DNA of 64,000 nt, taken from the NCBI GenBank assembly GCA_965368515.1, contig CBDUNF010000001.1, positions 4,265 through 68,264 on the forward strand, written 5' to 3'. Position numbers and translations under genes: made by a program. Under the pieces are notes generated by a model. The model was not told the DNA's origin. It made no database searches and saw only the letters and a program-made list of their open reading frames with translations. Of this stretch, positions 19,837-50,204 are shown piece by piece. Each line of letters starts with the position of its first letter. Positions within the stretch are counted from its first letter, which is position 1. Source of the DNA: an uncultured bacterium (GTDB lineage Bacteria > Actinomycetota > Acidimicrobiia > Spongiisociales > UBA5794).

Positions 19837-19850
19837 TTGGAACGTTCCAA
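19837..19850. promoter_or_regulatory. 14-bp palindromic operator TTGGAACGTTCCAA (copy 1), overlapping the iolB RBS
   Basis: Perfect palindrome with central AACGTT; identical sequence at four other promoter-proximal sites. Confidence 0.6.
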
Positions 19851-19937
19851 CATGTTGAACCTAATCGGCGGCGCTGGGTGCTGTCAACGCGGTCGAGGCG
19901 CTTGACATACTCGTACCCGGGTGTTTAGCGTGGCTTA

Positions 19938-19951
19938 TTGGAACGTTCCAG
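19938..19951. promoter_or_regulatory. operator copy 2 (TTGGAACGTTCCAG), ~50 nt upstream of iolG and just downstream of a TTGACA...TAGCGT promoter-like pair (19902-19931)
   Basis: 13/14 match to the palindrome; position relative to a candidate -35/-10. Confidence 0.5.
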
Positions 19952-20001
19952 ACAAATCTCGGCGGTCTGATTGATCTGCGGGGAGATGGAAGAGGTGACG
20001 G

Positions 20002-20991
20002 ATGCGGATCGGTCTTATCGGTGCAGGCCGGATCGGGCTCTTTCACGGGCAGACCCTGGCGGTTCATGAAGAGGTCAGCGGGATTCTGGTGAGCGATCCG
20101 CTGATCGAGCGGGCCAAGACATTGGCCGCCGACATCGGTGCCGAGGTAGCTCCCGATGCCGATGCGATGATCGGCGAGATCGACGCCATGGTGGTCGCCG
20201 CCGCGACGGACGTGCACGCTCCGATGATGCACCTAGCCGCCGACGCCGGGATCCCCGTCTTCTGTGAGAAGCCGATCGCCGTCGATCTCCCCACAACCGA
20301 TCTGGTTGTCGACCACATCCGGCAGGCGGGCATCCCCGCACAGATCGGATTCCAACGCCGGTTCGATGCGGGTTATCGCGCCGCCAAAGCCAGGGTCGAC
20401 GACGGCACACTCGGACACCTCTACTCGGTTCGCACCACAACTCACGATCACGAACCTCCCCCGCCCGGGTATGTCGACACAGGAATCTACGTCGATACCC
20501 AGATCCACGACTTTGACATCATCAGGTTCGTCACCGGCCAAGAGGCAGTCGAGGTCTATGCCGCCGGGTACACGACCACCGCGGACGCCTTTGGCCCCGA
20601 CCGCCCGATCGACACCGGCGTTGTCGTTCTCTCGTTGAGTGATGGAACCCAGGCTTTGATGTCGGGGATCCGCCACAATCCGGTCGGACACGATGTCCGC
20701 ATGGAGTTGTTTGGCGTCGAAGACAGCGTCAGCGTCGGGCTGCACCCGAGCCTCCCACTGCGTTCCGTCGAGCCGGGCGGTCTCGCCATCGTCGAACCGA
20801 CGCCGAAGTCCTTCCTGGATAGGTTCGCCCCGGCTTACAGAGCCGAGATCGAAGTGTTCCTAAACGTGGCTCAGGGACGGATCGAGAGCCCATGCACCCC
20901 CGAAGATGCCCGTGCGGCGCTGCGCATTGCGATTGCCTGCAATGTCTCACGCGCCGAGCACAGACCCGTTCGATTGGAGGAAGTGGCATGA
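20002..20991 (+). CDS. iolG: myo-inositol 2-dehydrogenase-like Gfo/Idh/MocA oxidoreductase
   Basis: MRIGLIGAGRIG Rossmann motif, EKP motif; divergent from iolB and followed by an iolE-like gene and an inositol-type ABC transporter. Confidence 0.75.
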   Translation: MRIGLIGAGRIGLFHGQTLAVHEEVSGILVSDPLIERAKTLAADIGAEVAPDADAMIGEIDAMVVAAATDVHAPMMHLAADAGIPVFCEKPIAVDLPTTDLVVDHIRQAGIPAQIGFQRRFDAGYRAAKARVDDGTLGHLYSVRTTTHDHEPPPPGYVDTGIYVDTQIHDFDIIRFVTGQEAVEVYAAGYTTTADAFGPDRPIDTGVVVLSLSDGTQALMSGIRHNPVGHDVRMELFGVEDSVSVGLHPSLPLRSVEPGGLAIVEPTPKSFLDRFAPAYRAEIEVFLNVAQGRIESPCTPEDARAALRIAIACNVSRAEHRPVRLEEVA

Positions 20992-21869
20992 CAGACATGA
21001 TGTCGCGGATAGCCGGGGCACCGATTACGTGGGGTGTGGACGGCTCCCCTGGTTGGGGCCACCTGATGGATCCCGATCGCGTCCTGGGTGAGATGGCCGC
21101 GCTGGGGTTGAAGGCGACGGAGTTGGGGCCCGATGGTTACCTGCCGATCGATCCGGCCGAACTCAAAGCGAAGCTCGATGGCTACGGCCTCGAGTTGGTT
21201 GGCGGGTTCGTGCCTGCGGTGCTTCACATTCCAGAGCGAGCTGAGGGTGACCTCGCCTATGCGGCCCGGGCGTCGAAGACGCTGGCCGGATGTGGTGCGA
21301 GCGTTCTGGTGCTTGGCCCCGGTTCCGGACTCGACGGTTACGACACATCGATTGACATGTCGGACACCGATTGGGGCATTTTCCTGGGTAACCTGAAACA
21401 TGTGATCGCTGCTGCGGCCGACGAGGGTTTGACAGTTGCCTTGCACCAACATTGGGGCATGGCCATTGAGACCCCGCAACACGTGGAGCGTTTGATTGCG
21501 CAGAGCGACGTCGAATTTTGTCTCGATACCGGGCACCTATACCTAGGAGGTGCCGATCCCGTTGCGATCGCCAAAGCCGCCGTCGGTCGGGTGGCCCATG
21601 TGCACCTCAAGGACGTTGACGAAGCGATGGCCAACCAGGTTCGACGCGGCGAACTGCCATTCCGCCAGTCAGTTATTGACGGCATTTTCAAGCCGCTTGG
21701 TGATGGCGCAGTCGACATCGCAGGCTTTGTCGGAACACTCGAAGAGGCCGGCTTTGACGGTTGGTATGTCCTCGAGCAGGACAAGGTTCTCGATGCAGAT
21801 CCGCTTCCAGGCGAGGGCCCGATACAAGACGCCCGAAAGAGCTTCTCGTATCTGGCGGGGTTGAGCTAG
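20988..21869 (+). CDS. sugar phosphate isomerase/epimerase (xylose isomerase-like TIM barrel); candidate inosose dehydratase IolE
   Basis: TIM-barrel AP-endonuclease-2 family pattern (HLKD, VLEQD); ATGA overlap with iolG. Confidence 0.65.
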
Positions 21870-21982
21870 TAACGGTTTGCCCTCACGAGCGTCGTGAGGG
21901 TGGAAGGGCCCACTCATGTGGGCGCCCGACTGCGTGGATTGATCCATATAGTCGGGGAGGAAATACGGAGGAGGAACAAGGG

Positions 21983-23005
21983 ATGAAAAGAAGTGTATGG
22001 CTGGTGTTGCTGCTGGCCTTCGCCCTGATCGTCGGAGCCTGCGGTGGCGACGATGACTCGACAACCACCGCTGCCGGTGACGACGCCACGGAGACGACCG
22101 CAGACGGCGGCGGCGACGCTGTGACCCAGCGCAGCTTGCGCATCGTTGTTGTCTCGCACGGTCAAGCGTCCGACCCGTTCTGGTCGGTAGCGGCCAACGG
22201 TGTCAGCGATGCTGGTGATGACATGGGAGTCACCGTTGAGTACCAGTCGCCGGGGACGTTCGACATGGTCGAGATGAGCCAGATCATCGATGCGGCCGTT
22301 GCGTCGCAGCCGGACGGTTTGGTTGTATCAATTCCCGATGCGGCGGCTCTTGGTGATTCGATTCGGGCCGCCGTTGCGGCTGGTATCCCGGTCATCTCGA
22401 TGAACTCGGGTAGCGACGCGTTTGCCGATCTTGGCGTGCTGGTCCATGTTGGCCAGACTGAGTACGAGGCCGGGCTCATTGCCGGTCAGCGCTTTGCCGC
22501 CGAGGGAGTTGGCAGCGCCATCTGCATCAACCAGGAAGTTGGTAACACCGCACTCGATGACCGCTGCCAAGGCTTCGAAGACGGTCTCGGCGTGGACGTC
22601 AACGTCATTCCTGTGGATCTCGCCGATCCGACGGGCACCCAGGAAACTGTTGCTGGTGCGTTGCAGGCGAATCCGGTTGAGGGAATCCTGACGCTGGGCC
22701 CGACCGGCGCTGCGCCGACCCTGGCCGCGCTGACCGAGAACGGCATGCTGGGAACTATCAAGTTCGCCACGTTCGACATGTCTCCTGACGTGCTGGCCTC
22801 GATTGTCGACGGCGACATGCTGTTCGCCATCGACCAGGCGCAGTACCTGCAGGGCTACCTGCCGATCGTGCTCCTGACGAAGTACGCCGAAACGGGCGCA
22901 CTGCCCTTGGGCAGCGTTGACCGTGTCATCCTGACCGGTCCGCAGATCGTCACCGCAGACGTGGCAGCAGACGTAATCGCCTACTCGGAGCAAGGCCTCC
23001 GCTAA
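21983..23005 (+). CDS. sugar ABC transporter substrate-binding lipoprotein (ribose/inositol-binding type I PBP)
   Basis: Lipoprotein signal [16 protein letters not shown]; periplasmic-binding-protein type I sequence; GGAGGAGGAACAAGGG RBS. Confidence 0.8.
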
Positions 23006-23074
23006 TCGAACGAACTGGCTGGGACCCGCTACGGCGGGTCCCAGCTCTATCCGCAAGAACGGAGGGAGGATTGC

Positions 23075-24151
23075 GTGACCACTGAAACGGCGCCGGCAAC
23101 AGCGCCGGCACCACCGAGCGACGAAAGAGTCAGGCAGGTTGGACTGCTCAGCCGGCTGCTGGCTCGTCCCGAGGTTGGGGCAATCGTTGGGACGGCCCTG
23201 ATTTGGGTGTTCTTTGCGATTGTCGCCTGGGACAACAACTTTGCAAGCTGGGTGACGACGGCCGCCATCTTCAATCGGGCGGCCCCGCTTGGCATTCTCG
23301 CCATCGCGGTCGCGCTGCTGATGATTGGTGGCGAGTTCGATCTGTCGATCGGCTCGATAGTGGGCTTCGCCGGCATGACGATAATGATCCTCGTCTTCCC
23401 CAGCGAAGGCGGAGGCTTTGGCTGGTCGCTGTGGCCGGCCATGCTCGTAGCGCTGGTCTTCGCCCTGACGATTGGGTTGTTCAATGGCTGGCTGGTGATG
23501 GCAACCAAGCTGCCATCGTTCATCATCACCCTGGGCACGCTATTCGTATTCCGCGGTTTGACCATCGCGGTGACACGTCTGTTGACCAACCGCACCCAGC
23601 TCGGTGGCGCTGACGAAGTGTCGGGCTTCGGCTTGGCCGACTCGATCTTCGCTGCGGAAATCGGTCTGTTCGGGGCGTCTTTCCGGATCTCCATCCTTTG
23701 GTGGATCGGCCTGACAGCTCTAGCTACCTGGATCCTCCTGCGCACCAAGCAAGGCAACTGGATCTTCGGTTCCGGCGGCGATGACAACGCCGCTCGCAAC
23801 CAGGGTGTTCCGGTCACCCGGACCAAGGTCGCACTCTTCATGACCACCGCGTTCGCCGGGTTCCTTGTGGCATTGATTCAGGTTGTGCAGTTCACCGGTG
23901 CTGACACCTTGCGAGGCCGGCAGCAGGAGTTCTTTGCGATCATTGCCGTGGTCATCGGGGGCACGCTGCTCACTGGTGGCTACGGGTCTGCGATCGGGGC
24001 GTTCTTTGGTGCGCTGATCTTTGCGATGGTGCAGCAAGGCATCATCATCACCGGTGTCGACGGTGACTGGTTCCAAGTCTTCGTCGGTGGCATTCTGATT
24101 ATCGCCGTGATCTTCAACAACTTCGTACGGCAGAAGGCGGCACAACGATGA
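23075..24151 (+). CDS. ABC transporter permease (RbsC/monosaccharide type)
   Basis: 10-TM branched-chain/ribose-type permease pattern; GTG start. Confidence 0.8.
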
Positions 24152-25017
24152 GTGGCAACGGCACCCCACTTCTGGAAATCAAGAACGTCTCCAAGTACTT
24201 CGGTAGCGTCATTGCGTTGCAGGATGTGTCGGCGTTTGTGCGTGCCGGTGAGGTCACCTGTCTCCTTGGCGACAACGGTGCCGGGAAGTCGACCCTGATC
24301 AAGGTTTTGGCCGGTGTCCACAAGCCGACCGAAGGCGAGTACTTCTTCGATGGTCAAGCGATGGATTTCAGCTCGCCGCGCGACGCTTTGGATCACGGCA
24401 TCGCCACCGTCTATCAGGACCTGGCCATGATCCCGCTAATGGCTGTGTGGCGGAACTTCTTCCTAGGGGCCGAGCCCACCAAGGGCTGGGGTCCCTGGCG
24501 GCGATTCGATGTGGATCGGGCCAAGGAGATCACTGTCACCGAGCTGGGCAAGATGGGGATCCAGATTCGGGATCCCGATCAGACGGTCGGAACGCTTTCG
24601 GGTGGTGAGCGCCAGTCGGTGGCTATCGCCCGTGCGGTCTACTTCGGCGCCAAGGTGCTGATTCTCGATGAGCCGACCGCGGCCCTCGGTGTCAAGCAGG
24701 CCGGTGTGGTCCTCAAGTACATCTTGCAGGCACGCAACCGGGGGATCGGTGTGATCTTCATTACCCACAACCCGCACCATGCGTACCCCGTTGCGGATCA
24801 CTTCGTGATCCTGCGTCGTGGAACCGTGTACGGCGACTACACGAAGGAAGAACTCCCGCTCGAGCAACTGGTCCAGATGATGGCCGGCGGCGCCGACCTC
24901 GAGGTGCTCCAGCATGAGCTGGAGGCAGCATCACGTGAAGGCGAAGAGGGGGCCGATACGCTCAAGGAGACTGCGGCGAGGATCGGCTCCGAGCTCGAGG
25001 AGCTTGGGGAAAGCTAA
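24148..25017 (+). CDS. sugar ABC transporter ATP-binding protein
   Basis: Walker [10 protein letters not shown], signature LSGGERQ, Walker [12 protein letters not shown]; ATGA overlap with the permease gene. Confidence 0.85.
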
Positions 25018-25051
25018 GAGTGATCGGGTCGTGGCTGAGTCTCGTGCTCCG

Positions 25052-25594
25052 TCACGATCCGAGTCCCCAGTCGCGGACGACTATCACCGCAGCGTCTGTG
25101 AGTTGGATCCCGGCGCGATGGCTACGTCGCTCTTCCACCAACTCAACTATCGCTTCGGCGTACTGCTCCGAGGGTGTGGTCTCCCACGTGTCTGCTTCGA
25201 ACCAATCAACGGAAGGCGAAAAACCCTGCGCTGCGAGAAACGCTGTGCGGAGATCCTCGTGCTCTGGGCAGGTGAATTCGACATGATGGGCAAACTCATG
25301 CAGCAGTTCGCTGCGCAGGGTTGCCGGGGTCCCCGGCACCCGAACCACGATTGTCTCCGTAGCCGGCCGGTATTCGCCACGATTATCGAGCTCCCACGCT
25401 GCCGCCAGGGTCGGAGACGGGATGCAATCACGACGACCCGGCACCGCGGCGAGAAAGTCGCTCCAGGCCTCGAGAGCCAGCTCGCGCAGGTCACCGGGGA
25501 CTGTGTCGTCAAAGTGGAGGTCGGCGGAACCACCGCCGCAACCGGTGAGGCCGACGAATGCGATCAAGGCTGTCGAGAAGAGGCGGCGGAGCAC
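25052..25594 (-). CDS. HExxH-motif lipoprotein (putative zinc metallopeptidase-like); start uncertain (GTG)
   Basis: Lipobox LIAFVGLTGCGGG after a positive N-region; LLHEFAHHVEF zincin-like motif; no canonical RBS. Confidence 0.4.
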   Translation of the reverse strand: MLRRLFSTALIAFVGLTGCGGGSADLHFDDTVPGDLRELALEAWSDFLAAVPGRRDCIPSPTLAAAWELDNRGEYRPATETIVVRVPGTPATLRSELLHEFAHHVEFTCPEHEDLRTAFLAAQGFSPSVDWFEADTWETTPSEQYAEAIVELVEERRSHRAGIQLTDAAVIVVRDWGLGS

Positions 25595-25654
25595 ATAATG
25601 ACAATAACCCGAGGCTCGGCGCACGCAGCCCGAGCGACCAAGTGAGGTGTTGCG

Positions 25655-26038
25655 ATGAATGACATCACGATCATGATTCCAGAGCGCGGTGGGGCAGTTC
25701 CCGAGGTGTGGGAGGCTCTCGGTGCTGCTGCCGTTTCTGTCGAGGCGGCGCTCTCGTTTTCCCGAGAACATCACCGCGTCGTCCATGTCGTTGTTGCTGA
25801 CGAAGCGGTGGCGCCCGCACGTGGCGCTCTCGAATCTGCCGGTTTCCTCATCGTGGATCAGCGTGAAGTCCTGCTGGTCGACCTGGCGGATCACCCCGGA
25901 GGCCTCGCTGAGGTAACCCGGGTCGCGTATGACTCGGGCGCCGGCGTCTACCTACTGTCGATGGCCACCGAGAACCGGGTGATGCTTGGCGTCGCCGACC
26001 TCGAAGCAGCACACCGCGCCTTTGGCAGGGCCAAATGA
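25655..26038 (+). CDS. ACT-domain-like small protein (paralog of 18580-18960), translationally coupled to the gluconolactonase gene
   Basis: 127 aa; alignable to the other copy along its full length; GAGGTG RBS. Confidence 0.45.
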   Translation: MNDITIMIPERGGAVPEVWEALGAAAVSVEAALSFSREHHRVVHVVVADEAVAPARGALESAGFLIVDQREVLLVDLADHPGGLAEVTRVAYDSGAGVYLLSMATENRVMLGVADLEAAHRAFGRAK

Positions 26039-26907
26039 AGGTCGAATGCGTCCTCCCCGCAAAAGCCGATCTGGGGGAGTGCCCGGTGTGGAGTCCGGCG
26101 GACGAACTCCTCTACTGGGTGGATATCGATGGTCGTGCGGTTCACGCCTTCGACCCATCTCTGGGCACCGATCGGAAGTGGCAGCTGGAGGTGCGTCCCG
26201 CAACCATCGCCAGAACCAACGATCCAAAGCGGTTGCTTGTTGCCGCAGAGAACGAGCTGGCGTGGCTGGCTCTGGATACCGGCGAGCTGACGTCGTGGGT
26301 GAGTCTCGAAGAGTCAAAGGAAGGCATCCGACTCAACGACGGACGTTGTGACCCGGCAGGCCGGCTGTGGATTGGCGGCATGTATGTGCCAACGTCGGCG
26401 ATGAGATTCGAAGCCTTCTTGCACCGGGTTGATCCCGATGGCAGCTTCGTCACGGTCCGTAGCGAGGTCGGTTGTGCCAACGGGTCGGCCTTCTCGCCGG
26501 ACGGATCGGTGATGTATTGGGCCGACACGCTGCACGGAATCGTGTGGGCATACGACTATGACATAGATACCGGGAATCAACACAACGAGCGTGTCTTCTT
26601 GGATTTCGCCCCGCTGCCCGGCAAGCCCGACGGAGCATGTGTGGATGAAACCGGCTGCTACTGGGTCGCGTGTGTCGGTGGTGGGGCGGTCGCCCGGATC
26701 ACGCCGCACGGTGATGTCGATCAGGTAATCGACGTTCCTGTGATTCGACCCACCATGCCTGCCTTCGGGGGTCCCACTCTGGACACGCTCTACATCACAA
26801 CCATTGGTGTCCGCGATCCGGCGCAGGACGGCCCCGGTGACCACGGTGGCATCTTCGCCTTCAACCCCGGGGTACGAGGGCTGCCTGAGCCGGTGTTCGG
26901 CGGGTAA
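26035..26907 (+). CDS. SMP-30/gluconolactonase/LRE family protein (sugar lactonase)
   Basis: Six-bladed propeller lactonase blocks (GECPVWS, NDGRCDPAGRLWIG, PDGACVDETGCYWVA). Confidence 0.8.
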   Translation: MKVECVLPAKADLGECPVWSPADELLYWVDIDGRAVHAFDPSLGTDRKWQLEVRPATIARTNDPKRLLVAAENELAWLALDTGELTSWVSLEESKEGIRLNDGRCDPAGRLWIGGMYVPTSAMRFEAFLHRVDPDGSFVTVRSEVGCANGSAFSPDGSVMYWADTLHGIVWAYDYDIDTGNQHNERVFLDFAPLPGKPDGACVDETGCYWVACVGGGAVARITPHGDVDQVIDVPVIRPTMPAFGGPTLDTLYITTIGVRDPAQDGPGDHGGIFAFNPGVRGLPEPVFGG

Positions 26908-27097
26908 GCCCCGATTCAGACCGGACGAAGCATCCATAGACAACCGAGACGATGGCTTCGAAGAGCTTGCGAGTTTGTTGTGTAGCTCTGGCCAGGCAGA
27001 GCACCGTTGCGGCGGGCGACCCATCGATTGCGAAGCTAGTGCCGATAGCCCGCGGCTCACTGATACGCTCGGGAACACGCAACCTGTAGGAGGGACA

Positions 27098-28027
27098 ATG
27101 GCGTCTTCACACCGAATTGTCAGCCGAGGCACGGTATTGACTCTGGTTCTGGGCCTGCTGCTCGGGGCCGCCATCACCTCTGCGTTGGCAGCGCCGCTCG
27201 ATGCGGGGAAAGCGCCGGGGCAGCGGGTGGTCGAACACCGCATCGACATCCCTGCAGGCGACCATGTGATTCCGGCGATCCTTGCGGTGCCGAGAAGGGG
27301 TGGCCCGAACGCTGAGTTTCCCGCGGTCCTAATGGTGCACGGCTTCGCCTCGCACAAGGACGAAGTCGGCGACATGTACAAACGAGAGGCGCGATATCTG
27401 GCCGGCGCCGGGTACGCCTCGCTGCGGATTGATTTTGCCGGGTCGGGCGAGAGCGCCCAGCCGTGGGTCGCCAACACCTACGACGGGATGGTCGCCGACA
27501 CTCGGATCGCGCTCGATTGGCTCGTTGACCACTCGGCGACCGACGACGATCGAATCGGGATTCTGGGGTTCAGCCTGGGTTCGCGGATCTCGGCAGCGGT
27601 AGCCGGAACGGACGACCGGATCGCCGCGTTTGCCAGCTGGTCTGGTTCGGTTGAGAACGGTCGCACCGGGTTCGATTTCTTCTTTGACACCTACTACGAG
27701 GAGGCCCAGGCCAACGGGTCGGTCGTCGTTGATCTTGGGTTCACGGTCATCGAGTTGAGTGCTGAGTGGTTCGAGAGCATGGATGCGTCTCACGCCCGCG
27801 ACGATGTCGGCGGCTACGTCGGCCCACTTCTCGCCATTGCGGGTACCGACGACTTGACCGTCGATCCGGTCGTATCGAGAGAGCTGATTCTGCATGCGGG
27901 GAGCCTCGACGCGACCCTGAGGATCCTCCCCGGAGCAGACCACATCTACCACGTGCTGACACCCGACCAGACTCTTGCCGAGGAGGTCATGCTGCTGACG
28001 GCACGCTGGTTCGCCGACAAGCTGTAA
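27098..28027 (+). CDS. secreted alpha/beta hydrolase (dienelactone hydrolase-like)
   Basis: Signal peptide; GFSLGS nucleophile elbow; AGGAGGGA RBS. Confidence 0.7.
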   Translation: MASSHRIVSRGTVLTLVLGLLLGAAITSALAAPLDAGKAPGQRVVEHRIDIPAGDHVIPAILAVPRRGGPNAEFPAVLMVHGFASHKDEVGDMYKREARYLAGAGYASLRIDFAGSGESAQPWVANTYDGMVADTRIALDWLVDHSATDDDRIGILGFSLGSRISAAVAGTDDRIAAFASWSGSVENGRTGFDFFFDTYYEEAQANGSVVVDLGFTVIELSAEWFESMDASHARDDVGGYVGPLLAIAGTDDLTVDPVVSRELILHAGSLDATLRILPGADHIYHVLTPDQTLAEEVMLLTARWFADKL

Positions 28028-28100: not shown

Positions 28101-28114
28101 TTGGAACGTTCCAA
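28101..28114. promoter_or_regulatory. operator copy 3 (TTGGAACGTTCCAA), 20 nt upstream of the 28134 dehydrogenase gene
   Basis: Perfect 14-bp palindrome. Confidence 0.6.
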
Positions 28115-28133: not shown

Positions 28134-29117
28134 GTGACATCGTCGGAGGGTGCGTTGGAAGTGTCGATGCCAGCAGTCTGGTTTGAGCGGGAGATCCTGC
28201 CGGATCTATATGCCGACGTGGTCACTCATGTCCAGGTGCTTGGGCCGGCCAGTGCTACCCCGGACGAGCCTTATCGTGGTCTTCCGACGGCTCTCGGCGT
28301 CGTCGCCTCCCAACACAACTACACAGCAGAGGTGATGGATCTCGCCCCCGGGCTGCTCGTTATCTCTCGCACCGGAATCGGTTACGAAAAGGTTGATGTT
28401 GACGCAGCCACCGCAAGGGGAATCGCTGTCTGCAACACCCCGGATGCTCCAACCGTCTCGACCGCCGAGCACGCCATCGCACTGCTGCTCATGGTCGCCA
28501 AGAACGTCAAACGCTCCGAGGCGGCTCTCCGAGGTGGCGGCTCGGACTTCTACGCCCGGCATGTCGGCATCGAATTGGAGGGGCTCACCCTGGGTCTCGT
28601 TGGATTCGGCAGGATCGCCCGGCAGGTCGCTGGTCTTGCCCATGGCTTTGGCATGCAAGTCTTGGCATTCGATCCGTTTCTGGATGATTCCGAGTTCGAA
28701 GGAGCGACTCGCTGCGACACAGCAGAGCAGTTGGCCGCCCAGGCGGATGCGCTCTCGTTGCATGTCCCACTCACCAGCGACAACGCTGGGCTCGTCGGTG
28801 GGGACTTCCTGCGGGTGATGAAGTCGGGGGCAATCCTCATCAATACCGCACGTGGGGGGCTGGTGGACCTTGCCGCGCTGGAAGCCGCACTCGAGTCCGG
28901 CCATCTCTTTGGTGTCGGACTCGACGTGACCGATCCGGAACCGCTACCGCCCGACCATCCCCTACTGCACAGGGACGATGTAGTGGTCACCCCCCACGTC
29001 GCCGCCGGTACTGCCGGGGCCAAGCGCAGGATCTTCAACACAGCCTTTACACAAGTCACGCAGGTTCTCAACGGAACACGACCCCAGCACCTCGTCAATC
29101 CCGAGGTGTGGAGTTGA
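28134..29117 (+). CDS. D-isomer-specific 2-hydroxyacid dehydrogenase; start uncertain (GTG 28134 / GTG 28161 / ATG 28167)
   Basis: NAD-binding GLVGFGRIAR, catalytic NTARGGLVD...GLDVTDPEP...TPHVAAGT. Confidence 0.75.
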   Translation: MTSSEGALEVSMPAVWFEREILPDLYADVVTHVQVLGPASATPDEPYRGLPTALGVVASQHNYTAEVMDLAPGLLVISRTGIGYEKVDVDAATARGIAVCNTPDAPTVSTAEHAIALLLMVAKNVKRSEAALRGGGSDFYARHVGIELEGLTLGLVGFGRIARQVAGLAHGFGMQVLAFDPFLDDSEFEGATRCDTAEQLAAQADALSLHVPLTSDNAGLVGGDFLRVMKSGAILINTARGGLVDLAALEAALESGHLFGVGLDVTDPEPLPPDHPLLHRDDVVVTPHVAAGTAGAKRRIFNTAFTQVTQVLNGTRPQHLVNPEVWS

Positions 29118-29148
29118 TGCTCCCAGCAGCGCATTGATAGGAGAAACA

Positions 29149-30324
29149 GTGAACAAGACCATCGGCATCGGTGTCGTCGGGTTTGGTTGGATGGGCCAGG
29201 CGCACAGCCGCGCCTACCGCAACATCCCCGTGTATTTCCCTGAGACCGGGCTGGAGCCCAAGCTGGTTGCCATTGCGGACAACGTGCCCGAGCGGGTCGA
29301 CCTGGCAGTCAACAACTTCGGCTTCGAGACCGGCACCGCCGATTGGCGCGAGCTCCTGGACCGTGATGACATCGACGTCATCGATTGCACAGCACCAACT
29401 GGCATGCATGAAGAGGTGGCCGTTGCGGCTGCTGCTGCCGGCAAACACGTCACCTGCGAGAAGCCGGTGGGCATCACACCGATGGCAACGGCCGCCATCG
29501 AAAAGGCGTCGCGAGATGCTGGTGTGATCACCGGGTGCGGCTACAACTATCGGTGGGCGCCGATGGTGCAGTACACCAAGCAGCTCATCGATGACGGTCG
29601 GTTCGGAGACCTGACTCACTACCGCGGCCGGTTCTTCTCCATGTATGGGCGGGATCGGCTCGGCCTTCTGTCGTGGCGGTTCAAGCAAGACGAGGCCGGG
29701 TTTGGGGCTCTCGCCGACATCATGTCCCACGCCGTCGACATGGCTCAGTACCTATGCGGACCGATCAAGAAGGTCGTCTCCGTCAAGGAGATCTTCGTCA
29801 AGGACCGCCCTCTGCCCACTCCGGGTTCGGGCACACACTATGACCGGGGCAAGCCCGATGACCCTACCGGCGTGGTCACCAACGAGGACTACGTCGGAGC
29901 TCTGGTTGAGTTCGAGAACGGAGTGCGAGGGACACTCGAGGCGGATCGCTCCATCTTTGGACCGCAGAGCCAGATGGCCTTTGAGATGAACGGTTCCAAG
30001 GGCGCCGCATACTGGGACCACGAGAAGCTCAATCAACTGTCGTTGTATCTCCCCGAGGAACAGCCAACCGACGGGTTTGTCGAGGTGCTGTCGGGCGATG
30101 CCTACAAGCACCACGGCAACTTCGTGCCGGGCGGCGGCAACTCGATTGGCTACGAGGACCTCAAGACGATCGAGGCCCTCGAGTTCATCACTGCGGTTGC
30201 CGAAGGCCGTCCCAACAAGCCCGACTTTGGTGACGCGTTGTCCGCTGCGTCGGTTGCGGCTGCGATGGTGCGGTCCTGGGAATCGGAGAAGTGGGAAGAC
30301 GTCGTCAGCCTTCGTATCGACTGA
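29149..30324 (+). CDS. Gfo/Idh/MocA family oxidoreductase
   Basis: IGIGVVGFGWMG N-terminal motif, CEKP motif; AGGAGAAACA RBS before GTG. Confidence 0.8.
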   Translation: MNKTIGIGVVGFGWMGQAHSRAYRNIPVYFPETGLEPKLVAIADNVPERVDLAVNNFGFETGTADWRELLDRDDIDVIDCTAPTGMHEEVAVAAAAAGKHVTCEKPVGITPMATAAIEKASRDAGVITGCGYNYRWAPMVQYTKQLIDDGRFGDLTHYRGRFFSMYGRDRLGLLSWRFKQDEAGFGALADIMSHAVDMAQYLCGPIKKVVSVKEIFVKDRPLPTPGSGTHYDRGKPDDPTGVVTNEDYVGALVEFENGVRGTLEADRSIFGPQSQMAFEMNGSKGAAYWDHEKLNQLSLYLPEEQPTDGFVEVLSGDAYKHHGNFVPGGGNSIGYEDLKTIEALEFITAVAEGRPNKPDFGDALSAASVAAAMVRSWESEKWEDVVSLRID

Positions 30325-30336
30325 CCCGGAGGACAA

Positions 30337-31098
30337 ATGCTGCTCGAGAACACAACCAAGCGCAAGCTCCGTGACGGCGGGACCGTCTATGGATGTTTCA
30401 TGCGCCAGGCCGAGGCGACCCTCGCCGAATTCATCGCGATGCAGGGCATGGACTTCATGATCTTCGACGGCGAACACGGGTCGCTCGAAGCCCGCGACAT
30501 CGAAGGGCTCAGCCGGGCCTGTGAGTTGCACGGCGTAACACCGATCGCCCGGGTCAGTAGCAACCAGCCGGCGGCGATATTGCGCTTTCTCGATGCCGGA
30601 GCCCATGGAGTCCAGATCCCCTGGGTGAATACCGCGGCCGAGGTCGAGCAGGCAGTGCAGTCGGCGAAGTACGGGCCTCGCGGGTTGCGCGGACTCGCCG
30701 GGAGCAGGCAAGGCGGATGGGGCCTCACCGAACCGCTGGGCGAATACACCCAGCGTGCCAATCGTGAAACGATGGTGGTTATCCACATCGAAACCGCCCA
30801 GGCCGCCGCGGCGGTCGAGGAGTACGTCGGCATCGACGATGTCGACGTCTTGTTCATCGGCCCCACCGATCTGTCCCATTCGCTTGGGCACCCCGGGAAC
30901 CCTGGTCATTCCGAAGTGGTCGAGGTCATGGATCGGGTCACCGAGGCCGTGGTGGCGTCCGACAAGACACTCGGCATCTTTGTTGGGACCCGGAAGGCGG
31001 CTGCAGATTGGCACGCCAAGGGTGCTCGCTACATCGCAACAGGTCTAGAAGGAATCATCAAGCAAGGAATCCAGGCATACCTACCTGGCGACCGGTAA
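30337..31098 (+). CDS. HpcH/HpaI family class II aldolase (2-keto-3-deoxy-acid aldolase-like)
   Basis: TIM-barrel PEP-utilising/HpcH pattern (MIFDGEHG...HIET...LFIGPTDLS). Confidence 0.8.
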   Translation: MLLENTTKRKLRDGGTVYGCFMRQAEATLAEFIAMQGMDFMIFDGEHGSLEARDIEGLSRACELHGVTPIARVSSNQPAAILRFLDAGAHGVQIPWVNTAAEVEQAVQSAKYGPRGLRGLAGSRQGGWGLTEPLGEYTQRANRETMVVIHIETAQAAAAVEEYVGIDDVDVLFIGPTDLSHSLGHPGNPGHSEVVEVMDRVTEAVVASDKTLGIFVGTRKAAADWHAKGARYIATGLEGIIKQGIQAYLPGDR

Positions 31099-31109
31099 AG
31101 GAGTCACCA

Positions 31110-32954: not shown

Positions 32955-32956
32955 CG

Positions 32957-33754
32957 ATGGCCGACCTTGATGGCAAGGTTGCGCTGCTGACCGGAGCCGG
33001 GTCGCTGGTCGGCGGCGCCATCGGCCAGAAGCTGGTCGATGCGGGGGCCAGGGTGGTGATGGCCGGTCGCAATGAAGCGAACGGAGCCGAGGTGGTTGCG
33101 CCGCTTGGTGACTCCGGCGTGTTCGTGAGCACCGACATCACCAAGGATGAAGACCTCGATGCGCTGGTGGCGGTGGCCGTGGGTCGGTTTGGCGGAGTAG
33201 ACATTGTTGTCTCCGCTGCTGCCATCTTCGATTGCGGGATGCTGGAGACCACACGGGAGAATTGGTTGCGGTCGTTCGATACCAACGTGATCAGCGGTGC
33301 AATGCTGATCGAGAAAGCGGTACCCCACATGCGGGAGCGCGGGGGAGGGGCTGTCGTCATCGTCGGTTCGATCTCCGGCAAGCAGTCGCAGCCAAATCGG
33401 ATTGTGTATCCGACCACCAAGTCCGCCCTGCTCGGTTTGACCCGGAACATGTCCCAGGCGCTGGCGCCGGACAATGTCCGGGTCAACCACATCACCCTGG
33501 GGTGGACGTGGAGCCGCAACATCGAGCGCCGCTACGGCAGCCGGGAACGAGCGGACCTGTTTGCCGCGGAGTTCCAACCGATGGGCCGGATGGTGCACCC
33601 TGAAGAGTGCGGCGATGCAGTCGTCTTCCTGAGCTCGGATCGGGCATCGTTCATCACCGGCGCCGATCTTGCCGTCGACGGTGGCTACGACGCAATCGGC
33701 CCCGAAGCGATGGGTCAGCCGTTCGAGAAGGTCCCGGCGCTGCCGGACACATAG
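32957..33754 (+). CDS. SDR family oxidoreductase
   Basis: TGAGSLVGGAIG cofactor motif; YxxxK (YPTTKSAL). Confidence 0.85.
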   Translation: MADLDGKVALLTGAGSLVGGAIGQKLVDAGARVVMAGRNEANGAEVVAPLGDSGVFVSTDITKDEDLDALVAVAVGRFGGVDIVVSAAAIFDCGMLETTRENWLRSFDTNVISGAMLIEKAVPHMRERGGGAVVIVGSISGKQSQPNRIVYPTTKSALLGLTRNMSQALAPDNVRVNHITLGWTWSRNIERRYGSRERADLFAAEFQPMGRMVHPEECGDAVVFLSSDRASFITGADLAVDGGYDAIGPEAMGQPFEKVPALPDT

Positions 33755-42379: not shown

Positions 42380-42455
42380 GGGGTCACGCTGCCGTTGCTG
42401 TCGTGTCGATGGCCATGGGCCCGAATCCCCCGGACGACCGGGGTCGAAGCCCAGT

Positions 42456-45364: not shown

Positions 45365-45428
45365 GTTCTCAGGTCACAATTCGTGTTCGGCGGCCAATGG
45401 CGTGAAGCCAGTCGTGGCGTGGCCTCCT

Positions 45429-45442
45429 TGGAACGTTCCAAC
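45429..45442. promoter_or_regulatory. operator copy 4 (TTGGAACGTTCCAA), ~40 nt upstream of the SDR-iolC-iolB2-aldolase operon
   Basis: Perfect 14-bp palindrome. Confidence 0.6.
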
Positions 45443-45482
45443 GCTCGGGGATATACTGCGCGGACGCCACTTTGGAGGGGCC

Positions 45483-46292
45483 ATGGGTCGGTTCGACGGC
45501 AAGATCGCTCTCATCACCGGGAGCACGCAGGGCGTAGGTGAGGCCGTCGCCCGCCGTCTCGCAGTCGAAGGGGCTGCCGGCATCGTCGTGTGTGGCCGTA
45601 ATCAGAGTCGGGGGGAGACGGTTGCCGGAGCTCTGGCGGAAGCAGGGACGGCGGCGCTATTCGTACCGGTCGAACTTGGTGATGCGGAGAGCTGCCAGCG
45701 TCTGATTGCCAGCGCTGATGAGCAGTTCGGTCGCATCGATGTGTTGGTCAACGCGGCGGCTCTCACTCTGCGCGGTTCGATCATCGATACCTCGGTCGAA
45801 TTATGGGACCTGATAATGAACGTCAACCTGCGCGCTCCCTTTCTATTGATGCAGGGTGCGATCAAGATCATGAGGCGGGAAGGAAGCGGGGGCACCATCG
45901 TCAACGTCGGCTCAGTTGCATCGCACGGCGGTGCCCCGATCCTCATGCCGTATTCCGCATCGAAGGCAGCCTTGGCGGCCATGACCAAGAATGTGGCGTA
46001 CTCAGTTGCCTGGGACGGCATCCGCGTCAACTGCATCAACCCGGGCTGGATGGACACGCCGGGTGAGGACGATATCCAGCGACGCTTCCACACCGACGGG
46101 CAGGATTGGCTCGACAAAGCTGAGGCAGGAATGCCATCCGGGCAGCTCATCAAGACCGACGAGGTTGCAGCCGCCATCGCCTTCCTAGCATCCGGTGAAT
46201 CCGGCATCATGACCGGCTCGGTTGTCGACTATGACCAATCCGTCGTCGGCGCCGGCAACGCCCCGGTTCCCAAACGGGAGGAGACACCGTGA
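45483..46292 (+). CDS. SDR family oxidoreductase
   Basis: TGSTQGVGEAVA motif; YSASKAA catalytic YxxxK. Confidence 0.85.
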   Translation: MGRFDGKIALITGSTQGVGEAVARRLAVEGAAGIVVCGRNQSRGETVAGALAEAGTAALFVPVELGDAESCQRLIASADEQFGRIDVLVNAAALTLRGSIIDTSVELWDLIMNVNLRAPFLLMQGAIKIMRREGSGGTIVNVGSVASHGGAPILMPYSASKAALAAMTKNVAYSVAWDGIRVNCINPGWMDTPGEDDIQRRFHTDGQDWLDKAEAGMPSGQLIKTDEVAAAIAFLASGESGIMTGSVVDYDQSVVGAGNAPVPKREETP

Positions 46293-47287
46293 CATACGAT
46301 CTCATCACCGTCGGCCGGGTCAACATGGATCTGTTTGCTCAGGATATCGGCGCCGACTTTGCCGACATCACCGGCTTCGATGCGGCGGTAGGGGGCAGCC
46401 CTTCCAACATCGCCATGGGCACCAGCCGGCTTGGTTTGACGACAGCCGCGTTCACCGCAGTCGGCGACGACACGGTCGGCGACTTTGTGCGCCGTTTCCT
46501 CGGCGACATGGGTGTCGTGACTGATTTTGTTGCAACCAAACCAGGGAAGCGGACCTCGCTGGCCCTGGTCGGCGTGCAGCCACCCGATCGGTTCCCGCTC
46601 ACGTTCTATCGCGACGATCCGGCCGACATCTACCTGACTATCGATGATGCTTCTGCGCTGCCGTTCGGCAGCACCTCGGCTGTCCTGCTGTCCGGCAATG
46701 CCTTCAGCCGAGGCACCTGCGCTGACGCCGCTCGTCGCGCTGCGGAACGGGCGGGGCACTTCGGGCTGACCACGTTCATGGATCTCGATCTGCGGCCGAC
46801 CGACTGGTCCCATCCCCATGCGTTCGGTCTGACCCTGCGTCCCGTGCTGCCGTGGGTCGATGTCCTGATCGGCACCGAAGAGGAGTTCTTTGCGCTGCTC
46901 GCCCCCGATCCCGGCCCTGTGGCGACTGGCGCCCCGGTCACGGCCGTCGACAGGAACGTCCTCGAGCAGCTTGTCGGGGTCCTGCTCGAGACGGGAACTG
47001 TGGGGACGGTGGTCCTCAAGCGGGGGGCCACCGGTGCGACGGTCCTCACCGGGTCGGAACGTATTGACGTTCCGGGTTTCCCGGTCGATCCCGTCAACAC
47101 GGTCGGTGCGGGTGACTCATTTGCGTCGGGGCTCATCTGGAGTCGGCTCCGTGGCGACGATTGGTATCGGGCGTGTCGATTCGGCAACGCTTGTGGTGCC
47201 ATCGTGGTTACCCGGCATGGCTGTGCGGTGGCCTTCCCTACCGAGCAAGAGGTCGTCGAGTTCGTGACAGGCGCGGGAGGGTTCTAG
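46289..47287 (+). CDS. iolC: 5-dehydro-2-deoxygluconokinase (PfkB family)
   Basis: PfkB carbohydrate kinase motifs (N-terminal GG, C-terminal VNTVGAGDSFASG); GTGA overlap with the SDR gene; context with iolB and aldolase. Confidence 0.75.
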   Translation: MTYDLITVGRVNMDLFAQDIGADFADITGFDAAVGGSPSNIAMGTSRLGLTTAAFTAVGDDTVGDFVRRFLGDMGVVTDFVATKPGKRTSLALVGVQPPDRFPLTFYRDDPADIYLTIDDASALPFGSTSAVLLSGNAFSRGTCADAARRAAERAGHFGLTTFMDLDLRPTDWSHPHAFGLTLRPVLPWVDVLIGTEEEFFALLAPDPGPVATGAPVTAVDRNVLEQLVGVLLETGTVGTVVLKRGATGATVLTGSERIDVPGFPVDPVNTVGAGDSFASGLIWSRLRGDDWYRACRFGNACGAIVVTRHGCAVAFPTEQEVVEFVTGAGGF

Positions 47288-48171
47288 TGGTTCACAAACT
47301 GACATCAACCGAGGGCCCCGGTCGGGTCCTGGAGGTCACCCCCGAGATCGTCGGCTGGGATGTCCTCGACTTCTCCGTCATGGTGCTCGAAGCCGCGGGA
47401 CGGTGGGCGATGACCACAGGTGGTCGCGAGGTCGCAGTCGTGCCTCAAGCAGGATCATTCGTTGCCCACGTCGGCGAACAGAGCTTCTCTCTCAACCGCT
47501 CCAGCGTCTTTGCAGAGATGGCCTCCGTTCTGTATCTCCCACCGAACACGGAGCTCACGGTTGAGGCGGCTACCGATGCCGAGTTTGCGATCGGCGGTGC
47601 CCCTGCCGAGGGCAAATACCCGGTGCGTCTATTCGATCCGTCGGAGATGAAGACTGAAGTCCGCGGGGGCGGTGGCGCCACTCGTCAGGTGAACCACATC
47701 CTGGCGCACCCGCTACCCGCCGAGCGCCTGATCCTCTATGAGGTCTATGTACCTCGTGGCAAGTGGTCTGGCTGGCCCCCTCATTGCCACGATGGCTACG
47801 AAGGCTCGCCCTATCTAGAAGAGACCTACTACTTCCGTTTCGATCCACCCAACGGCTGGGGCATGCACCGCAACTACCGGCTCGACAACGACTTCGATGA
47901 GGTGTTCTCGGTCAGTGACCGGGATGTGGTCATGGTCACCCAGGGGTTCCACTCCAGCGCGGCGTCACCCGGCAACCACATGTATTTCCTCAACTATCTG
48001 GCGGGGAAGCCGTGGGACGAAGCGCGCGCCATTCCGCCTTTCTTCCAACCAGAGTACCGATGGATCGACGGCAACTGGGATCAGGATGCAATGACCCTTC
48101 CCGCAGTGACTCCGACCCCCCAGCCCGGTTCCGCCGGCGGTGGCTTTCCTCGAGAGCGAGGGCTGAAATGA
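47287..48171 (+). CDS. 5-deoxy-glucuronate isomerase family protein (second, divergent IolB copy)
   Basis: HCHD...YLEETYYFRF and GNHMYFLNYLAG IolB-type cupin motifs; GTG start overlapping the iolC stop. Confidence 0.75.
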   Translation: MVHKLTSTEGPGRVLEVTPEIVGWDVLDFSVMVLEAAGRWAMTTGGREVAVVPQAGSFVAHVGEQSFSLNRSSVFAEMASVLYLPPNTELTVEAATDAEFAIGGAPAEGKYPVRLFDPSEMKTEVRGGGGATRQVNHILAHPLPAERLILYEVYVPRGKWSGWPPHCHDGYEGSPYLEETYYFRFDPPNGWGMHRNYRLDNDFDEVFSVSDRDVVMVTQGFHSSAASPGNHMYFLNYLAGKPWDEARAIPPFFQPEYRWIDGNWDQDAMTLPAVTPTPQPGSAGGGFPRERGLK

Positions 48172-49154
48172 GTCTGCCGACAATCACACCGGGCAAGGCG
48201 AGGGGTTTGGCTGCAACTTCTTCGGCGGGCGGGATCTTCAAGGTGCTTGCAGTGGATCATCGTGATTCGATGCGTGTCCTGATCGAACCAGAGAATCCAC
48301 AGGTTTTGGCTGCCTCTCATCTGACGGAGGTCAAGCTCGACTTGCTGCGACAGTTGGGCGCCGATGCCACTGCGATCATGCTTGATCCGGAGTACAGCGT
48401 CGCCCAAGCCATCGTGGCGCGGGCGCTCCCCGGCAGTGTGGGTTTCCTCGCAGCCGTTGAAGCCCAGGGGTATCTGGGCGACCCGACGGCGCGGCAGACC
48501 TCTCTTCTCGACGGCTGGGGAGTCGAGAAGGCAAAGAGAGTCGGTGCCAACGCCATCAAGCTCCTCGTGCTGTATCGGCCGGATGCCGGTGCTGTGACAG
48601 AGGCCCAGGACGAAGTGATCAAGGCCGTTATCGCCGACTGCGCCCGCTACGACATTCCGCTATTCCTCGAGCCGCTGGCGTATGCCACCGAACCTGGAGT
48701 CGCCACCGGTTCCTCCGAGTTCGCCGCGATTCGTCGCGGCCTGGTTGTGGAGACCGTTCGTCGCCTGGGGGCCCTCGGCCCCGATGTCTTGAAGGTTCAG
48801 TTTCCCGTAGACACCCGCCACGAGCCGGACCGGGTGGCCTGGGCAGACGCTTGCGCCGAACTCGATGCAGTTGCCCCAGTGCCTTGGGCGCTGCTGTCTG
48901 GAGGTGATCCGTACGATCTGTTTCGTGACCAAGTTCGCATCGCCGCCGAGGCGGGTGCGTCGGGTTTCCTCGTGGGGCGGGCACTGTGGGGCGACTACAT
49001 CTCCGCCGAGTCCGCAGACAAGCCGCACATCATGGAGGAGACGGTGCGGCCCCGGCTTGCCGAGTTGTCGGCCCTGGCGGATGAGTTCGGCCATGACTGG
49101 GCTGATCGGTACCGGTTGCCGGAGATCGACGAGCGCTGGTTCACGACCTACTAG
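48168..49154 (+). CDS. class I aldolase of the tagatose-1,6-bisphosphate aldolase (LacD) family; candidate 2-deoxy-5-keto-gluconate-6-P aldolase
   Basis: Blocks matching LacD (VLAVDHRDSMRV, IMLDPEYSV, GANAIKLLVLY, DIPLFLEPLAYA); ATGA overlap with the preceding gene. Confidence 0.7.
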   Translation: MSLPTITPGKARGLAATSSAGGIFKVLAVDHRDSMRVLIEPENPQVLAASHLTEVKLDLLRQLGADATAIMLDPEYSVAQAIVARALPGSVGFLAAVEAQGYLGDPTARQTSLLDGWGVEKAKRVGANAIKLLVLYRPDAGAVTEAQDEVIKAVIADCARYDIPLFLEPLAYATEPGVATGSSEFAAIRRGLVVETVRRLGALGPDVLKVQFPVDTRHEPDRVAWADACAELDAVAPVPWALLSGGDPYDLFRDQVRIAAEAGASGFLVGRALWGDYISAESADKPHIMEETVRPRLAELSALADEFGHDWADRYRLPEIDERWFTTY

Positions 49155-50167
49155 TCGCCGGCTTTAGGAAGCTGGAGATCGGCTGCGGCAAAGAGCCGTT
49201 CGATGATCTTCATGTTCGCCACCGATCCAGAAGCCGGTACCGGCGATGGGCTACCCGACACGACGGCGTCCGCCAGCGCAGTCGCCTGGAGTCCGTATTG
49301 GTTGGCAACCGGCACTTTCGTAGAGGTGACCGTCGATGCGTGTGGGTGATGATTTCCGCTCGTTCCGATCGTGATCTGCGTCTCGTGATGTGGAGGGCAG
49401 TTGAAGGGATCGGCGATCGACAGCCATCCACCCGTCCCGTGGATGACGACGCGATGCAGAGGTTCTTGTTCCATGGAACAGGTGAACGAAGCGATGCCGG
49501 TGCCGTAGTCGAGAACGGCGCTGAACGTCAGGTCGACTCCGCTGACAGGATCGATACGCGCCGTTCCTAGTACGTGTTCCGGCTGGTCGCCCAGCAACAT
49601 GCGGCTGACGTCTACCGCGTAACATCCAACGTCGTACAAAGCGCCCCCGCCGGATGTGGCGTCGTGGCGGTAGTCGGTTGGTCGAGTCGACCGGAACGAG
49701 AACCAGACGTCGACGTCGGTGACTGTCCCGATCGTGTTGGCGGCGAGGAGCCGTTTGGTCTCAACCCATGCCGGGTGGAAGCGGTACATGAAAGCTTCCA
49801 TCACGAGCACGCCACGATCGGCGCAATGGCCGATGACCGCTTCCGCCTCCGCCGCGGTCAGCGTCAGCGGCTTCTCACAGAGGATGTGCTTGCCCGCATC
49901 GGCAGCCCGCATTATCCACTCCGCATGCAGATGGTTTGGTAGTGGGATGTACACGCAGTCGATATCGGGATCGGCGAGCAGGTCGTTGTACGAGCCGTAC
50001 GCCCTGGCGATGCCAAACTCCTCAGCTACATCTTCTGCGCTGAGCAGAGATCGGGATCCGATTGCCAACAGGTTGCAGCGCTCTGCGTCGAGCAGCGCAG
50101 GGATGACGTGAGCCTTGGCAATGAGCGCAGTGCCGAGGACACCCCAATTGAGGCGGGAGTTGGTCAT
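49151..50167 (-). CDS. Gfo/Idh/MocA family oxidoreductase
   Basis: LNWGVLGTALIAK N-terminal motif, CEKPL motif. Confidence 0.8.
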   Translation of the reverse strand: MTNSRLNWGVLGTALIAKAHVIPALLDAERCNLLAIGSRSLLSAEDVAEEFGIARAYGSYNDLLADPDIDCVYIPLPNHLHAEWIMRAADAGKHILCEKPLTLTAAEAEAVIGHCADRGVLVMEAFMYRFHPAWVETKRLLAANTIGTVTDVDVWFSFRSTRPTDYRHDATSGGGALYDVGCYAVDVSRMLLGDQPEHVLGTARIDPVSGVDLTFSAVLDYGTGIASFTCSMEQEPLHRVVIHGTGGWLSIADPFNCPPHHETQITIGTSGNHHPHASTVTSTKVPVANQYGLQATALADAVVSGSPSPVPASGSVANMKIIERLFAAADLQLPKAGD

Positions 50168-50190
50168 GGATTGCAGCCTACCGGACCGGT

Positions 50191-50204
50191 CTGGAACGTT
50201 CCAA
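50191..50204. promoter_or_regulatory. operator copy 5 (CTGGAACGTTCCAA) in the divergent region between the Gfo/Idh/MocA gene and the LacI regulator gene
   Basis: 13/14 match to the palindrome. Confidence 0.55.

Follow-up and report, generated by a model that had tools for sequence, protein, structure and literature searches.

How are the genes for inositol use coordinated in an uncultured actinobacterium that carries them in separate operons? The question is raised by a 64,000-nt stretch of contig CBDUNF010000001.1 (positions 4,265 to 68,264; assembly GCA_965368515.1; G+C 61%), here called the window, from an uncultured member of the Acidimicrobiia. In this stretch a palindrome recurs in front of inositol (iol) genes and in front of a gene for a LacI-family regulator. 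The original prediction held that five copies of a 14-bp palindrome define a dispersed regulon, in which a single LacI-family repressor controls three physically separated gene sets and its own gene. The analysis described here makes it very likely that the five palindromes are operators of an IolR-like LacI-family repressor encoded at 50236-51252. The candidate operators (O1 to O5) and the regulator gene are:

O1, 19837..19850: exact palindrome; overlaps the AAGGAG ribosome-binding site of the minus-strand iolB1 gene (ATG 19826)
O2, 19938..19951: TTGGAACGTTCCAG; in front of the iolG-like operon
O3, 28101..28114: exact palindrome; 20 nt upstream of the longest open reading frame (ORF) start (GTG 28134) of a 2-hydroxyacid dehydrogenase gene
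O4, 45428..45441: exact palindrome; upstream of short-chain dehydrogenase/reductase (SDR), iolC, iolB and aldolase genes
O5, 50191..50204: CTGGAACGTTCCAA; between a divergent Gfo/Idh/MocA gene (ATG 50167, minus strand) and the LacI-family gene (50236, plus strand)
50236..51252, plus strand: LacI-family regulator gene, 338 aa from GTG; a TTG at 50245 behind AGGAAG is a possible true start

The exact palindrome, TTGGAACGTTCCAA, is present three times in the window (O1, O3 and O4) vs no match in 100 dinucleotide-preserving shuffles; O2 and O5 each deviate from it at one position. Three exact and two one-mismatch copies had been predicted, and these were recovered, but the third exact copy lies at 45428-45441 and not at 45429-45442. 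A scan allowing one to two mismatches had also been suggested; run on the window, it returned exactly these five sites, compared to a shuffle mean of 0.11, and the statement that the 64 kb contain no other copy holds at up to two mismatches. Matches with three mismatches at 964 and 56801 were rejected as sites, being intragenic and at chance level (~2 expected), and a search for extra sites with the 12-bp core gave only these two. All five copies share the perfect 12-bp core TGGAACGTTCCA, and all five have CG at the center. The motif is indeed a palindrome of the LacI type, but its conserved part is the 12-bp core rather than the full 14 bp, the outer positions being weakly conserved. An inverted-repeat search around the sites gave no longer palindrome; its sole find was a terminator-like repeat at 28035-28082.

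The contexts first assigned to the five sites are correct by sequence reading and gene-family assignment. Each site lies in the promoter region of genes for inositol catabolism or uptake, or before the LacI gene, in agreement with the claim that all copies are promoter-proximal to iol-type operons. The proposed coordination by one repressor is supported, but the genes form two clusters (18972-33754 and 45428-51252) rather than three sets, with five operators and at least six transcription units.

The gene at 50236 was expected to encode a LacI-family protein, and it does so at full length. The N-terminal helix-turn-helix matches PF00356 (57.5 bits vs a cut-off of 27, residues 8-53), and the effector domain matches the sugar-binding families Peripla_BP_1 (122.6 bits) and Peripla_BP_3 (103.9 bits). 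The protein aligns end to end with the structures of RbsR, CcpA, PurR, and LacI (E ~1e-43 to 1e-46), residues 8-331 being placed on PurR residues 2-330. NCBIfam has no specific model for it, the best match being RbsR (210 bits vs a cut-off of 382), and there is no C-terminal extension like the LacI tetramerisation helix. The recognition helix is AGVSKSLVSLV and the hinge is YRPNAVARSL(59)V; by our reading of the alignment offsets, Leu59 would correspond to PurR Leu54. In the LacI family, the hinge leucine inserts into the central CG of the palindromic operator (PMC3899939). Among the window ORFs scanned, no other regulator gene was found in or beside the iol clusters, and no DeoR-, RpiR-, or GntR-type IolR gene within them. 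The other regulator genes among these ORFs are a TetR gene (34606-35271), beside a zinc alcohol dehydrogenase gene, and a GntR/FCD gene (62432-63172), ~11 kb past the second cluster.

Conservation of the palindrome and covariation with the recognition helix

A scan of one genome per species yielded 71 loci, 1.04 Mb in total, that encode a relative of the window LacI protein. An exact look-up of the protein sequence gave no record. The relatives are mostly from metagenome-assembled genomes (MAGs) of Acidimicrobiia, in line with the lineage of the window, the best match being 83% identical; others are labeled Vicinamibacteria/Acidobacteriota, Euzebyaceae, and Chloroflexia, and some of these taxonomic bin labels may be wrong. 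The loci contain 79 sites with at most one mismatch vs ~0.2 expected, and 69 of the 79 precede a homologue of a window gene, whose estimated start is at most 250 bp away (25-60 bp in most cases). The genes so preceded are homologues of LacI (38 sites), the divergent Gfo/Idh/MocA gene (GFO3, 15), iolG (13), the SDR that heads the iolC operon (SDR2, 11), iolD (10), iolB (8), and the 2-hydroxyacid dehydrogenase (6). The pairing of the divergent Gfo/Idh/MocA gene with the LacI gene is kept in many loci. Where the LacI gene lies inside an operon (loci L024, L039, and L046) it has no site before it; in L024 the site heads the upstream iol genes. Dozens of genomes thus keep the motif before the LacI orthologue and before iol operons, which strengthens the assignment of the palindromes as iol operators.

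Across the sites, conservation is confined to the 14 bp, with a nearly invariant 12-bp core and a weak outer T/A; none was seen beyond the 14 bp that would suggest a longer operator. The sites were chosen by motif similarity, yet mismatches are found mainly in the outer positions. Of the ten "orphan" sites, those without such a homologue, several precede other candidate members of the regulon, which are absent from the window. A 363-aa transaldolase-like gene, scoring far below the transaldolase cut-offs, follows a site in four loci (L012:8895, L026:11169, L027:4527, and L028:3540), and in L051 (position 3333) a site precedes a 469-aa ORF that is aldehyde dehydrogenase-like by eye only.

Metagenome contigs were also scanned with the motif as anchor, independently of the LacI gene, and at least 120 matching stretches were obtained. 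Among the 120 stretches listed, 29 have LacI, Gfo/Idh/MocA, or iol homologues within 3 kb. Orthologous iol clusters were recovered in this way in L094, L098, L112, L128, L133, L172, L176, L185, and L188.

The operator sequence follows the recognition helix. All readable orthologues of at least 48% identity have the helix AGVSKSLVSLV, and most have the motif nearby. A group of ~40% identity from Ilumatobacteraceae-type MAGs (L058, L059, L063, and L070) has the helix GVSR[A/T/G]LVS[M/L]T. In this group the palindrome CTGAAGCGCTTCAG, often in two copies, is found at the same place, ~25-70 bp upstream of the LacI match, and the window motif never. A distant LacI lineage of ~31% identity, with the helix VSKSTVSLV followed by GYVYNR, carries TTGGAACGTTCCAA without change, 30-96 bp before its own gene; it adjoins Gfo/Idh/MocA genes on metagenome contigs (L080, L086, L096, L102, L109, L114, L115, L121, L181, L183, and L187). 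The pairing of a Lys-Ser helix with the GGAAC half-site holds across these lineages. Such natural variants offer pairs that link helix residues to operator bases: K-S with GGAAC, and R-A/T/G with GAAGC.

Promoter geometry and a proposed mode of repression

The position of the sites relative to -10-like hexamers was analyzed over 81 sites. TANNNT occurs 9-12 nt from the site edge in 78 of the 162 site-directions vs a background of ~1 per offset; 59 of the 81 sites are flanked by such a hexamer, 14 of them on both sides. Three of the window sites, at 28101, 45428, and 50191, belong to this class, in which the site overlaps the -35 region. At O3, TAGTAT (28125-28130) is 10 nt downstream, and the outer half of the palindrome, TTGGAA, lies 18 nt upstream of this -10 hexamer and therefore at the -35 position. 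At O4, TATACT (45452-45457) is also 10 nt downstream, and TTGGAA-18-TATACT was scored as promoter-like by a consensus promoter scan. O5 is flanked on both sides: on the plus strand by TATTAT (50216-50221), 11 nt away towards the LacI gene, and on the minus strand by TAGGCT (plus-strand AGCCTA, 50175-50180), 10 nt away. Because only 7 nt separate TAGGCT from the start codon (ATG) of the Gfo/Idh/MocA gene (49151-50167), which has no Shine-Dalgarno sequence by sequence reading, the mRNA of this gene is probably leaderless.

In a second geometry class (29 cases), TANNNT is 6-8 nt upstream of the site. It includes the divergent iolB and iolG promoters, whose operators at 19837 and 19938 are 101 bp apart. 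O1 is 7 nt downstream of the minus-strand promoter-like pair TTGACA(19887-19882)-18-TAGGTT(19863-19858), and O2 is 6 nt downstream of the plus-strand pair TTGACA(19902-19907)-18-TAGCGT(19926-19931). Both geometries are consistent with repression, with the site at the -35 position in one class and at the transcription start in the other. Upstream of O3, just after the stop codon of an alpha/beta hydrolase gene, the inverted repeat at 28035-28082 (21-nt arms, 76% complementary) resembles a terminator and sets the transporter operon apart from the operator and promoter that follow it.

We infer DNA binding, the dimeric state of the protein, the sign of regulation, and the identity of the effector. 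A repressor dimer would bind the 12-bp core TGGAACGTTCCA with its hinge leucine at the central CG. At 28101, 45428, and 50191 the operator would occupy the -35 position, with its center near -30, and from this position a bound repressor would exclude RNA polymerase rather than recruit it. At 50191 the exclusion would work in both directions, on the regulator's own promoter (autoregulation) and on the divergent oxidoreductase gene. At 19837 and 19938 the operators, 6-7 nt after the -10 hexamer, would lie at the transcription start (~+1). Starts are predicted near 19851, 19938, 28137, 45464, and 50228, with the leaderless one at 50167. Independent dimers, not looping, are assumed because the protein has no LacI-type tetramerisation extension. 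The predicted effector, an inositol or an intermediate of the pathway, would detach the repressor from DNA, and this release would switch on uptake through the ABC transporter and catabolism through iolG, E, D, B, C, the aldolase, and the accessory dehydrogenases.

Genes of the two clusters and competing explanations

Gene families were assigned by Pfam and NCBIfam profile searches, with equivalog cut-offs for IolB, IolC, IolD, IolG, and IolE. The genes of the two clusters are:

18972..19826, minus strand: iolB1, 5-deoxy-glucuronate isomerase (TIGR04378, 278 bits vs cut-off 205)
20002..28027, plus strand: putative operon of iolG-like, iolE-like, ABC transporter, two small ORFs, SMP-30/gluconolactonase-like and alpha/beta hydrolase genes
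20002-20991, plus strand: IolG-like Gfo/Idh/MocA dehydrogenase (best match TIGR04380, 271 bits, below cut-off 355)
20892-21869, plus strand: IolE-like dehydratase, TIM-barrel (best match TIGR04379, 164 bits, below cut-off 290)
21761-25017, plus strand: ABC transporter (binding protein, permease, ATPase); best match of the binding protein is a rhizopine binding protein (338 bits)
28134..33754, plus strand: putative operon of 2-hydroxyacid dehydrogenase, Gfo/Idh/MocA (396 aa), HpcH-type aldolase, iolD and SDR genes
Inside 28134..33754, plus strand: iolD (817 bits vs equivalog cut-off 715)
45483..49154, plus strand: putative operon of SDR, iolC kinase, iolB2 and DeoC/LacD-family aldolase (IolJ-like role) genes
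Inside 45483..49154, plus strand: iolC kinase (313 bits vs cut-off 300)
47161-48171, plus strand: iolB2 (TIGR04378, 227 bits vs 205)
After iolC and iolB2, plus strand: DeoC/LacD-family aldolase (PRK12858 subfamily, 237 bits vs 184; no IolJ-specific model matched)
49151..50167, minus strand: third Gfo/Idh/MocA oxidoreductase, divergent from the regulator gene

The two IolB paralogues each belong to their own promoter or operon under a candidate operator. The 396-aa Gfo/Idh/MocA protein has levoglucosan dehydrogenase as its best NCBIfam match, below the cut-off. Rhizopine, to whose binding protein the transporter component is most similar, is an inositol derivative. The 2-hydroxyacid dehydrogenase, the 396-aa Gfo/Idh/MocA protein, the HpcH aldolase, and the SDR of the iolD module are outside the textbook iol pathway. 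The order 2-hydroxyacid dehydrogenase-Gfo/Idh/MocA-HpcH aldolase-iolD-SDR is kept in seven other loci (L015, L016, L023, L024, L045, L049, and L060).

The palindrome might be bound by another transcription factor, encoded outside the window, of which the neighboring LacI gene is merely a target. The 64 kb in view are a part of the genome, and because the distant LacI lineage uses an identical 14-mer, a paralogue with the same helix could exist elsewhere in it. However, more than 50 genomes combine the motif with this LacI orthologous group, a change in the recognition helix is accompanied by a change in the motif, and CG-centered palindromes of 14 bp are the form that LacI-family operators take (PMC3899939, PMC5504672), all of which makes an outside factor very unlikely. 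Less probable still is an element that is mainly a promoter, with TTGGAA as the -35 hexamer of a bidirectional promoter and no dedicated repressor. TTGGAA does lie 18 nt from TANNNT at most sites, but the -10-distal half of the palindrome shows no more variation than the proximal one, even where the promoter is one-directional; the sites of the second class, 19837 and 19938 among them, have a separate TTGACA/-10 pair upstream; and the motif co-occurs with one LacI group. An action at the RNA level, either through a hairpin in the 5'-untranslated region that masks the iolB ribosome-binding site or through a terminator, could be imagined from the probable transcription of 19837 and 19938 and from the overlap of 19837 with that ribosome-binding site. 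This was rejected and is given next to no weight: the folds of the 5'-untranslated regions are no more stable than those of shuffles (z = 0.04 and -0.02), the palindrome does not pair with itself in the minimum-energy structures, three of the sites are upstream of the -10 hexamer and would hence not be transcribed, no T-run follows any site, and the orthologues show an invariant core instead of compensatory changes that would preserve a hairpin.

The nature of the substrate is a more evenly poised matter. The regulator may be assigned correctly and yet respond to, and control the use of, another cyclitol (scyllo- or D-chiro-inositol, or a rhizopine-like inosamine) or a pathway intermediate. 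The two clusters contain three Gfo/Idh/MocA paralogues; extra enzymes (the 2-hydroxyacid dehydrogenase, the HpcH aldolase, two SDRs, and a lactonase) are conserved in the regulon; and the match of the transporter component to a rhizopine binding protein points the same way. On the other hand, the scores of IolD, both IolB proteins, and IolC exceed the equivalog cut-offs; the branch for ring cleavage that the inositol isomers share is therefore present, and a different cyclitol or effector is considered rather unlikely.

Several points weigh against an inositol regulon under the repressor encoded at 50236-51252. The IolG-like and IolE-like proteins, although best matches to their families, score below the NCBIfam cut-offs, and no iolA (aldehyde dehydrogenase) gene was found among the window ORFs scanned, though it may lie elsewhere in the genome; for these two reasons the substrate is possibly another cyclitol. 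A strict sigma-70 consensus scan found a promoter at only one of the five sites (45428). Because the strict sigma-70 and terminator scan recognised that promoter only, positional statistics over the 81 sites were adopted, and the -10 assignments follow the looser TANNNT pattern. The evidence covers 64 kb of the genome, which may contain only a part of the regulon. In the metagenome scan, the other 91 of the 120 stretches listed are without iol context and range from 20 to 74% G+C. Such context-free matches are expected by chance in a very large collection; as about three-quarters of the listed matches are chance-like, the 14-mer alone is not diagnostic.

Apart from a conventional repressor-operator regulon, a less ordinary arrangement can be envisaged, in which the palindromic operator doubles as a TTGGAA -35 hexamer serving both directions, or in which the regulon drives a variant cyclitol pathway. 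This is possible but doubtful. If true, the former would represent a compact promoter-operator cassette spread over Acidimicrobiia and contigs labeled Vicinamibacteria, Euzebyaceae, and Chloroflexia. The latter would be characterized by clusters without iolA, by two IolB proteins, by the conserved 2-hydroxyacid dehydrogenase-Gfo/Idh/MocA-HpcH-IolD-SDR module, and in some genomes by the transaldolase-like gene, and its end products may differ from those of the textbook route.

Known inositol regulators and neighboring genes

Inositol repressors outside the LacI family include the DeoR-type IolR of Bacillus subtilis, the RpiR-type IolR of Sinorhizobium, Salmonella, and Caulobacter, and the GntR-type IolR of Corynebacterium glutamicum. 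These proteins also repress iol operons until inositol or an intermediate is present, but they belong to unrelated families and have operators of different forms. Within the LacI family, seven non-orthologous IolR groups are listed in RegPrecise, including Streptomycetaceae SAV_7156, Micrococcineae AAur_1987/Achl_0116, and Corynebacteriaceae cg0210 (Ravcheev et al. 2014, PMC4052901). As in the window, these are regulators encoded beside inositol-utilisation genes, with palindromes upstream of iol operons predicted as sites by comparative genomics. The window regulator is 42% identical to SAV_7156 (E 3e-75), 39% to Achl_0116, and 35% to cg0210, and shares the helix AGVSKSLVSLV with them. The system described here differs in that the 35-42% identity represents similarity and not established orthology, in its lineage (Acidimicrobiia), and in the central half-site bases, which are AACGTT in the window rather than AGCGCT. 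Two relatives from cultivated Actinomycetes (plasmid collection), encoded in iolG-type clusters, have related palindromes upstream of their own genes: TTGGAGCGCTCCAA in Tsukamurella and TTGTAGCGCTACAA in Arthrobacter. In Nonomuraea gerenzanensis (L072:9803), GTGGAAGCTTCCAG is found ~200 bp upstream of a SAV_7156-like LacI gene with the helix AGVSKSLVSLV; it has the same half-sites with a GC center instead of CG.

Two LacI-family regulators connected with inositol have been characterized experimentally. B. subtilis IolQ (DegA) represses iolX; its footprinted sites are downstream of the transcription start and have the 14-bp, CG-centered ideal palindrome AGAAAGCGCTTTCT (PMC5504672). In contrast to the window system, its operator has another sequence, it controls the iolX promoter while the whole pathway is under the DeoR-type IolR, and it neither binds its own promoter nor is released by inositols in vitro (PMC5504672). 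B. halodurans BH2219, of the RegPrecise IolR1 group, is 32% identical to the window regulator. The C. glutamicum protein IpsA, a dimer of the LacI family, recognises a CG-centered palindrome, and myo-inositol dissociates it from DNA (PMC3899939). Unlike the predicted repressor, however, it regulates inositol synthesis (ino1, as an activator) and cell-wall genes, not catabolic iol operons.

Similar operators also serve another function. The CebR/CelR boxes of Actinobacteria are TGGGAGCGCTCCCA, and the CebR2 consensus is TGGGAACGTTCCCA (PMC3377646, PMC9953190). These boxes have the same compact 14-bp LacI operator form, and the CebR2 consensus deviates from the window motif at just two symmetric positions, 2 and 13, but the genes under their control serve cellobiose and cellulose utilisation and the regulators form another LacI orthologous group. 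A literature search for GGAACGTTCC gave CebR/CelR-type boxes and unrelated primers only, with no report of the motif for inositol genes, and a search on inositol regulation in Acidimicrobiia found no papers. For cg0210, only papers on human CpG probes were obtained.

LacI-family inositol regulators are already known, and the predicted system is a well-supported but ordinary sugar regulon that does not change the LacI-family mechanism. To our knowledge, almost no transcriptional regulation has been described in Acidimicrobiia. For this mostly uncultured class the window offers a testable regulon, consisting of an operator, a predicted cognate repressor, and at least six transcription units. It helps the annotation of inositol use in environmental genomes, and synthetic biology in high-GC hosts could gain a compact repressor/operator pair from it. 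The less ordinary aspects, the possible operator that is also a two-way -35 element and the atypical enzyme complement around iolD, are worth a note.

The stretch between the two iol clusters contains unrelated genes: those for a DUF4332 protein and a universal stress protein, the TetR gene with the zinc alcohol dehydrogenase, and, at 36718-44306, a multi-subunit Mrp-type cation/proton antiporter and a Na+/H+ exchanger with TrkA-N, where no copy of the motif is present. Upstream of the first cluster, a sugar-acid-type cluster (7442-15518) encodes a 2-hydroxyacid dehydrogenase, a fructose-6-phosphate aldolase-like protein, a 566-aa protein with a fucose isomerase C-terminal domain, GAPDH-like and Gfo/Idh/MocA proteins, an altronate/galactarate dehydratase, and Ldh_2. 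This cluster contains no copy of the motif and is presumably under a different regulator; upstream of it lies a minus-strand ABC transporter.

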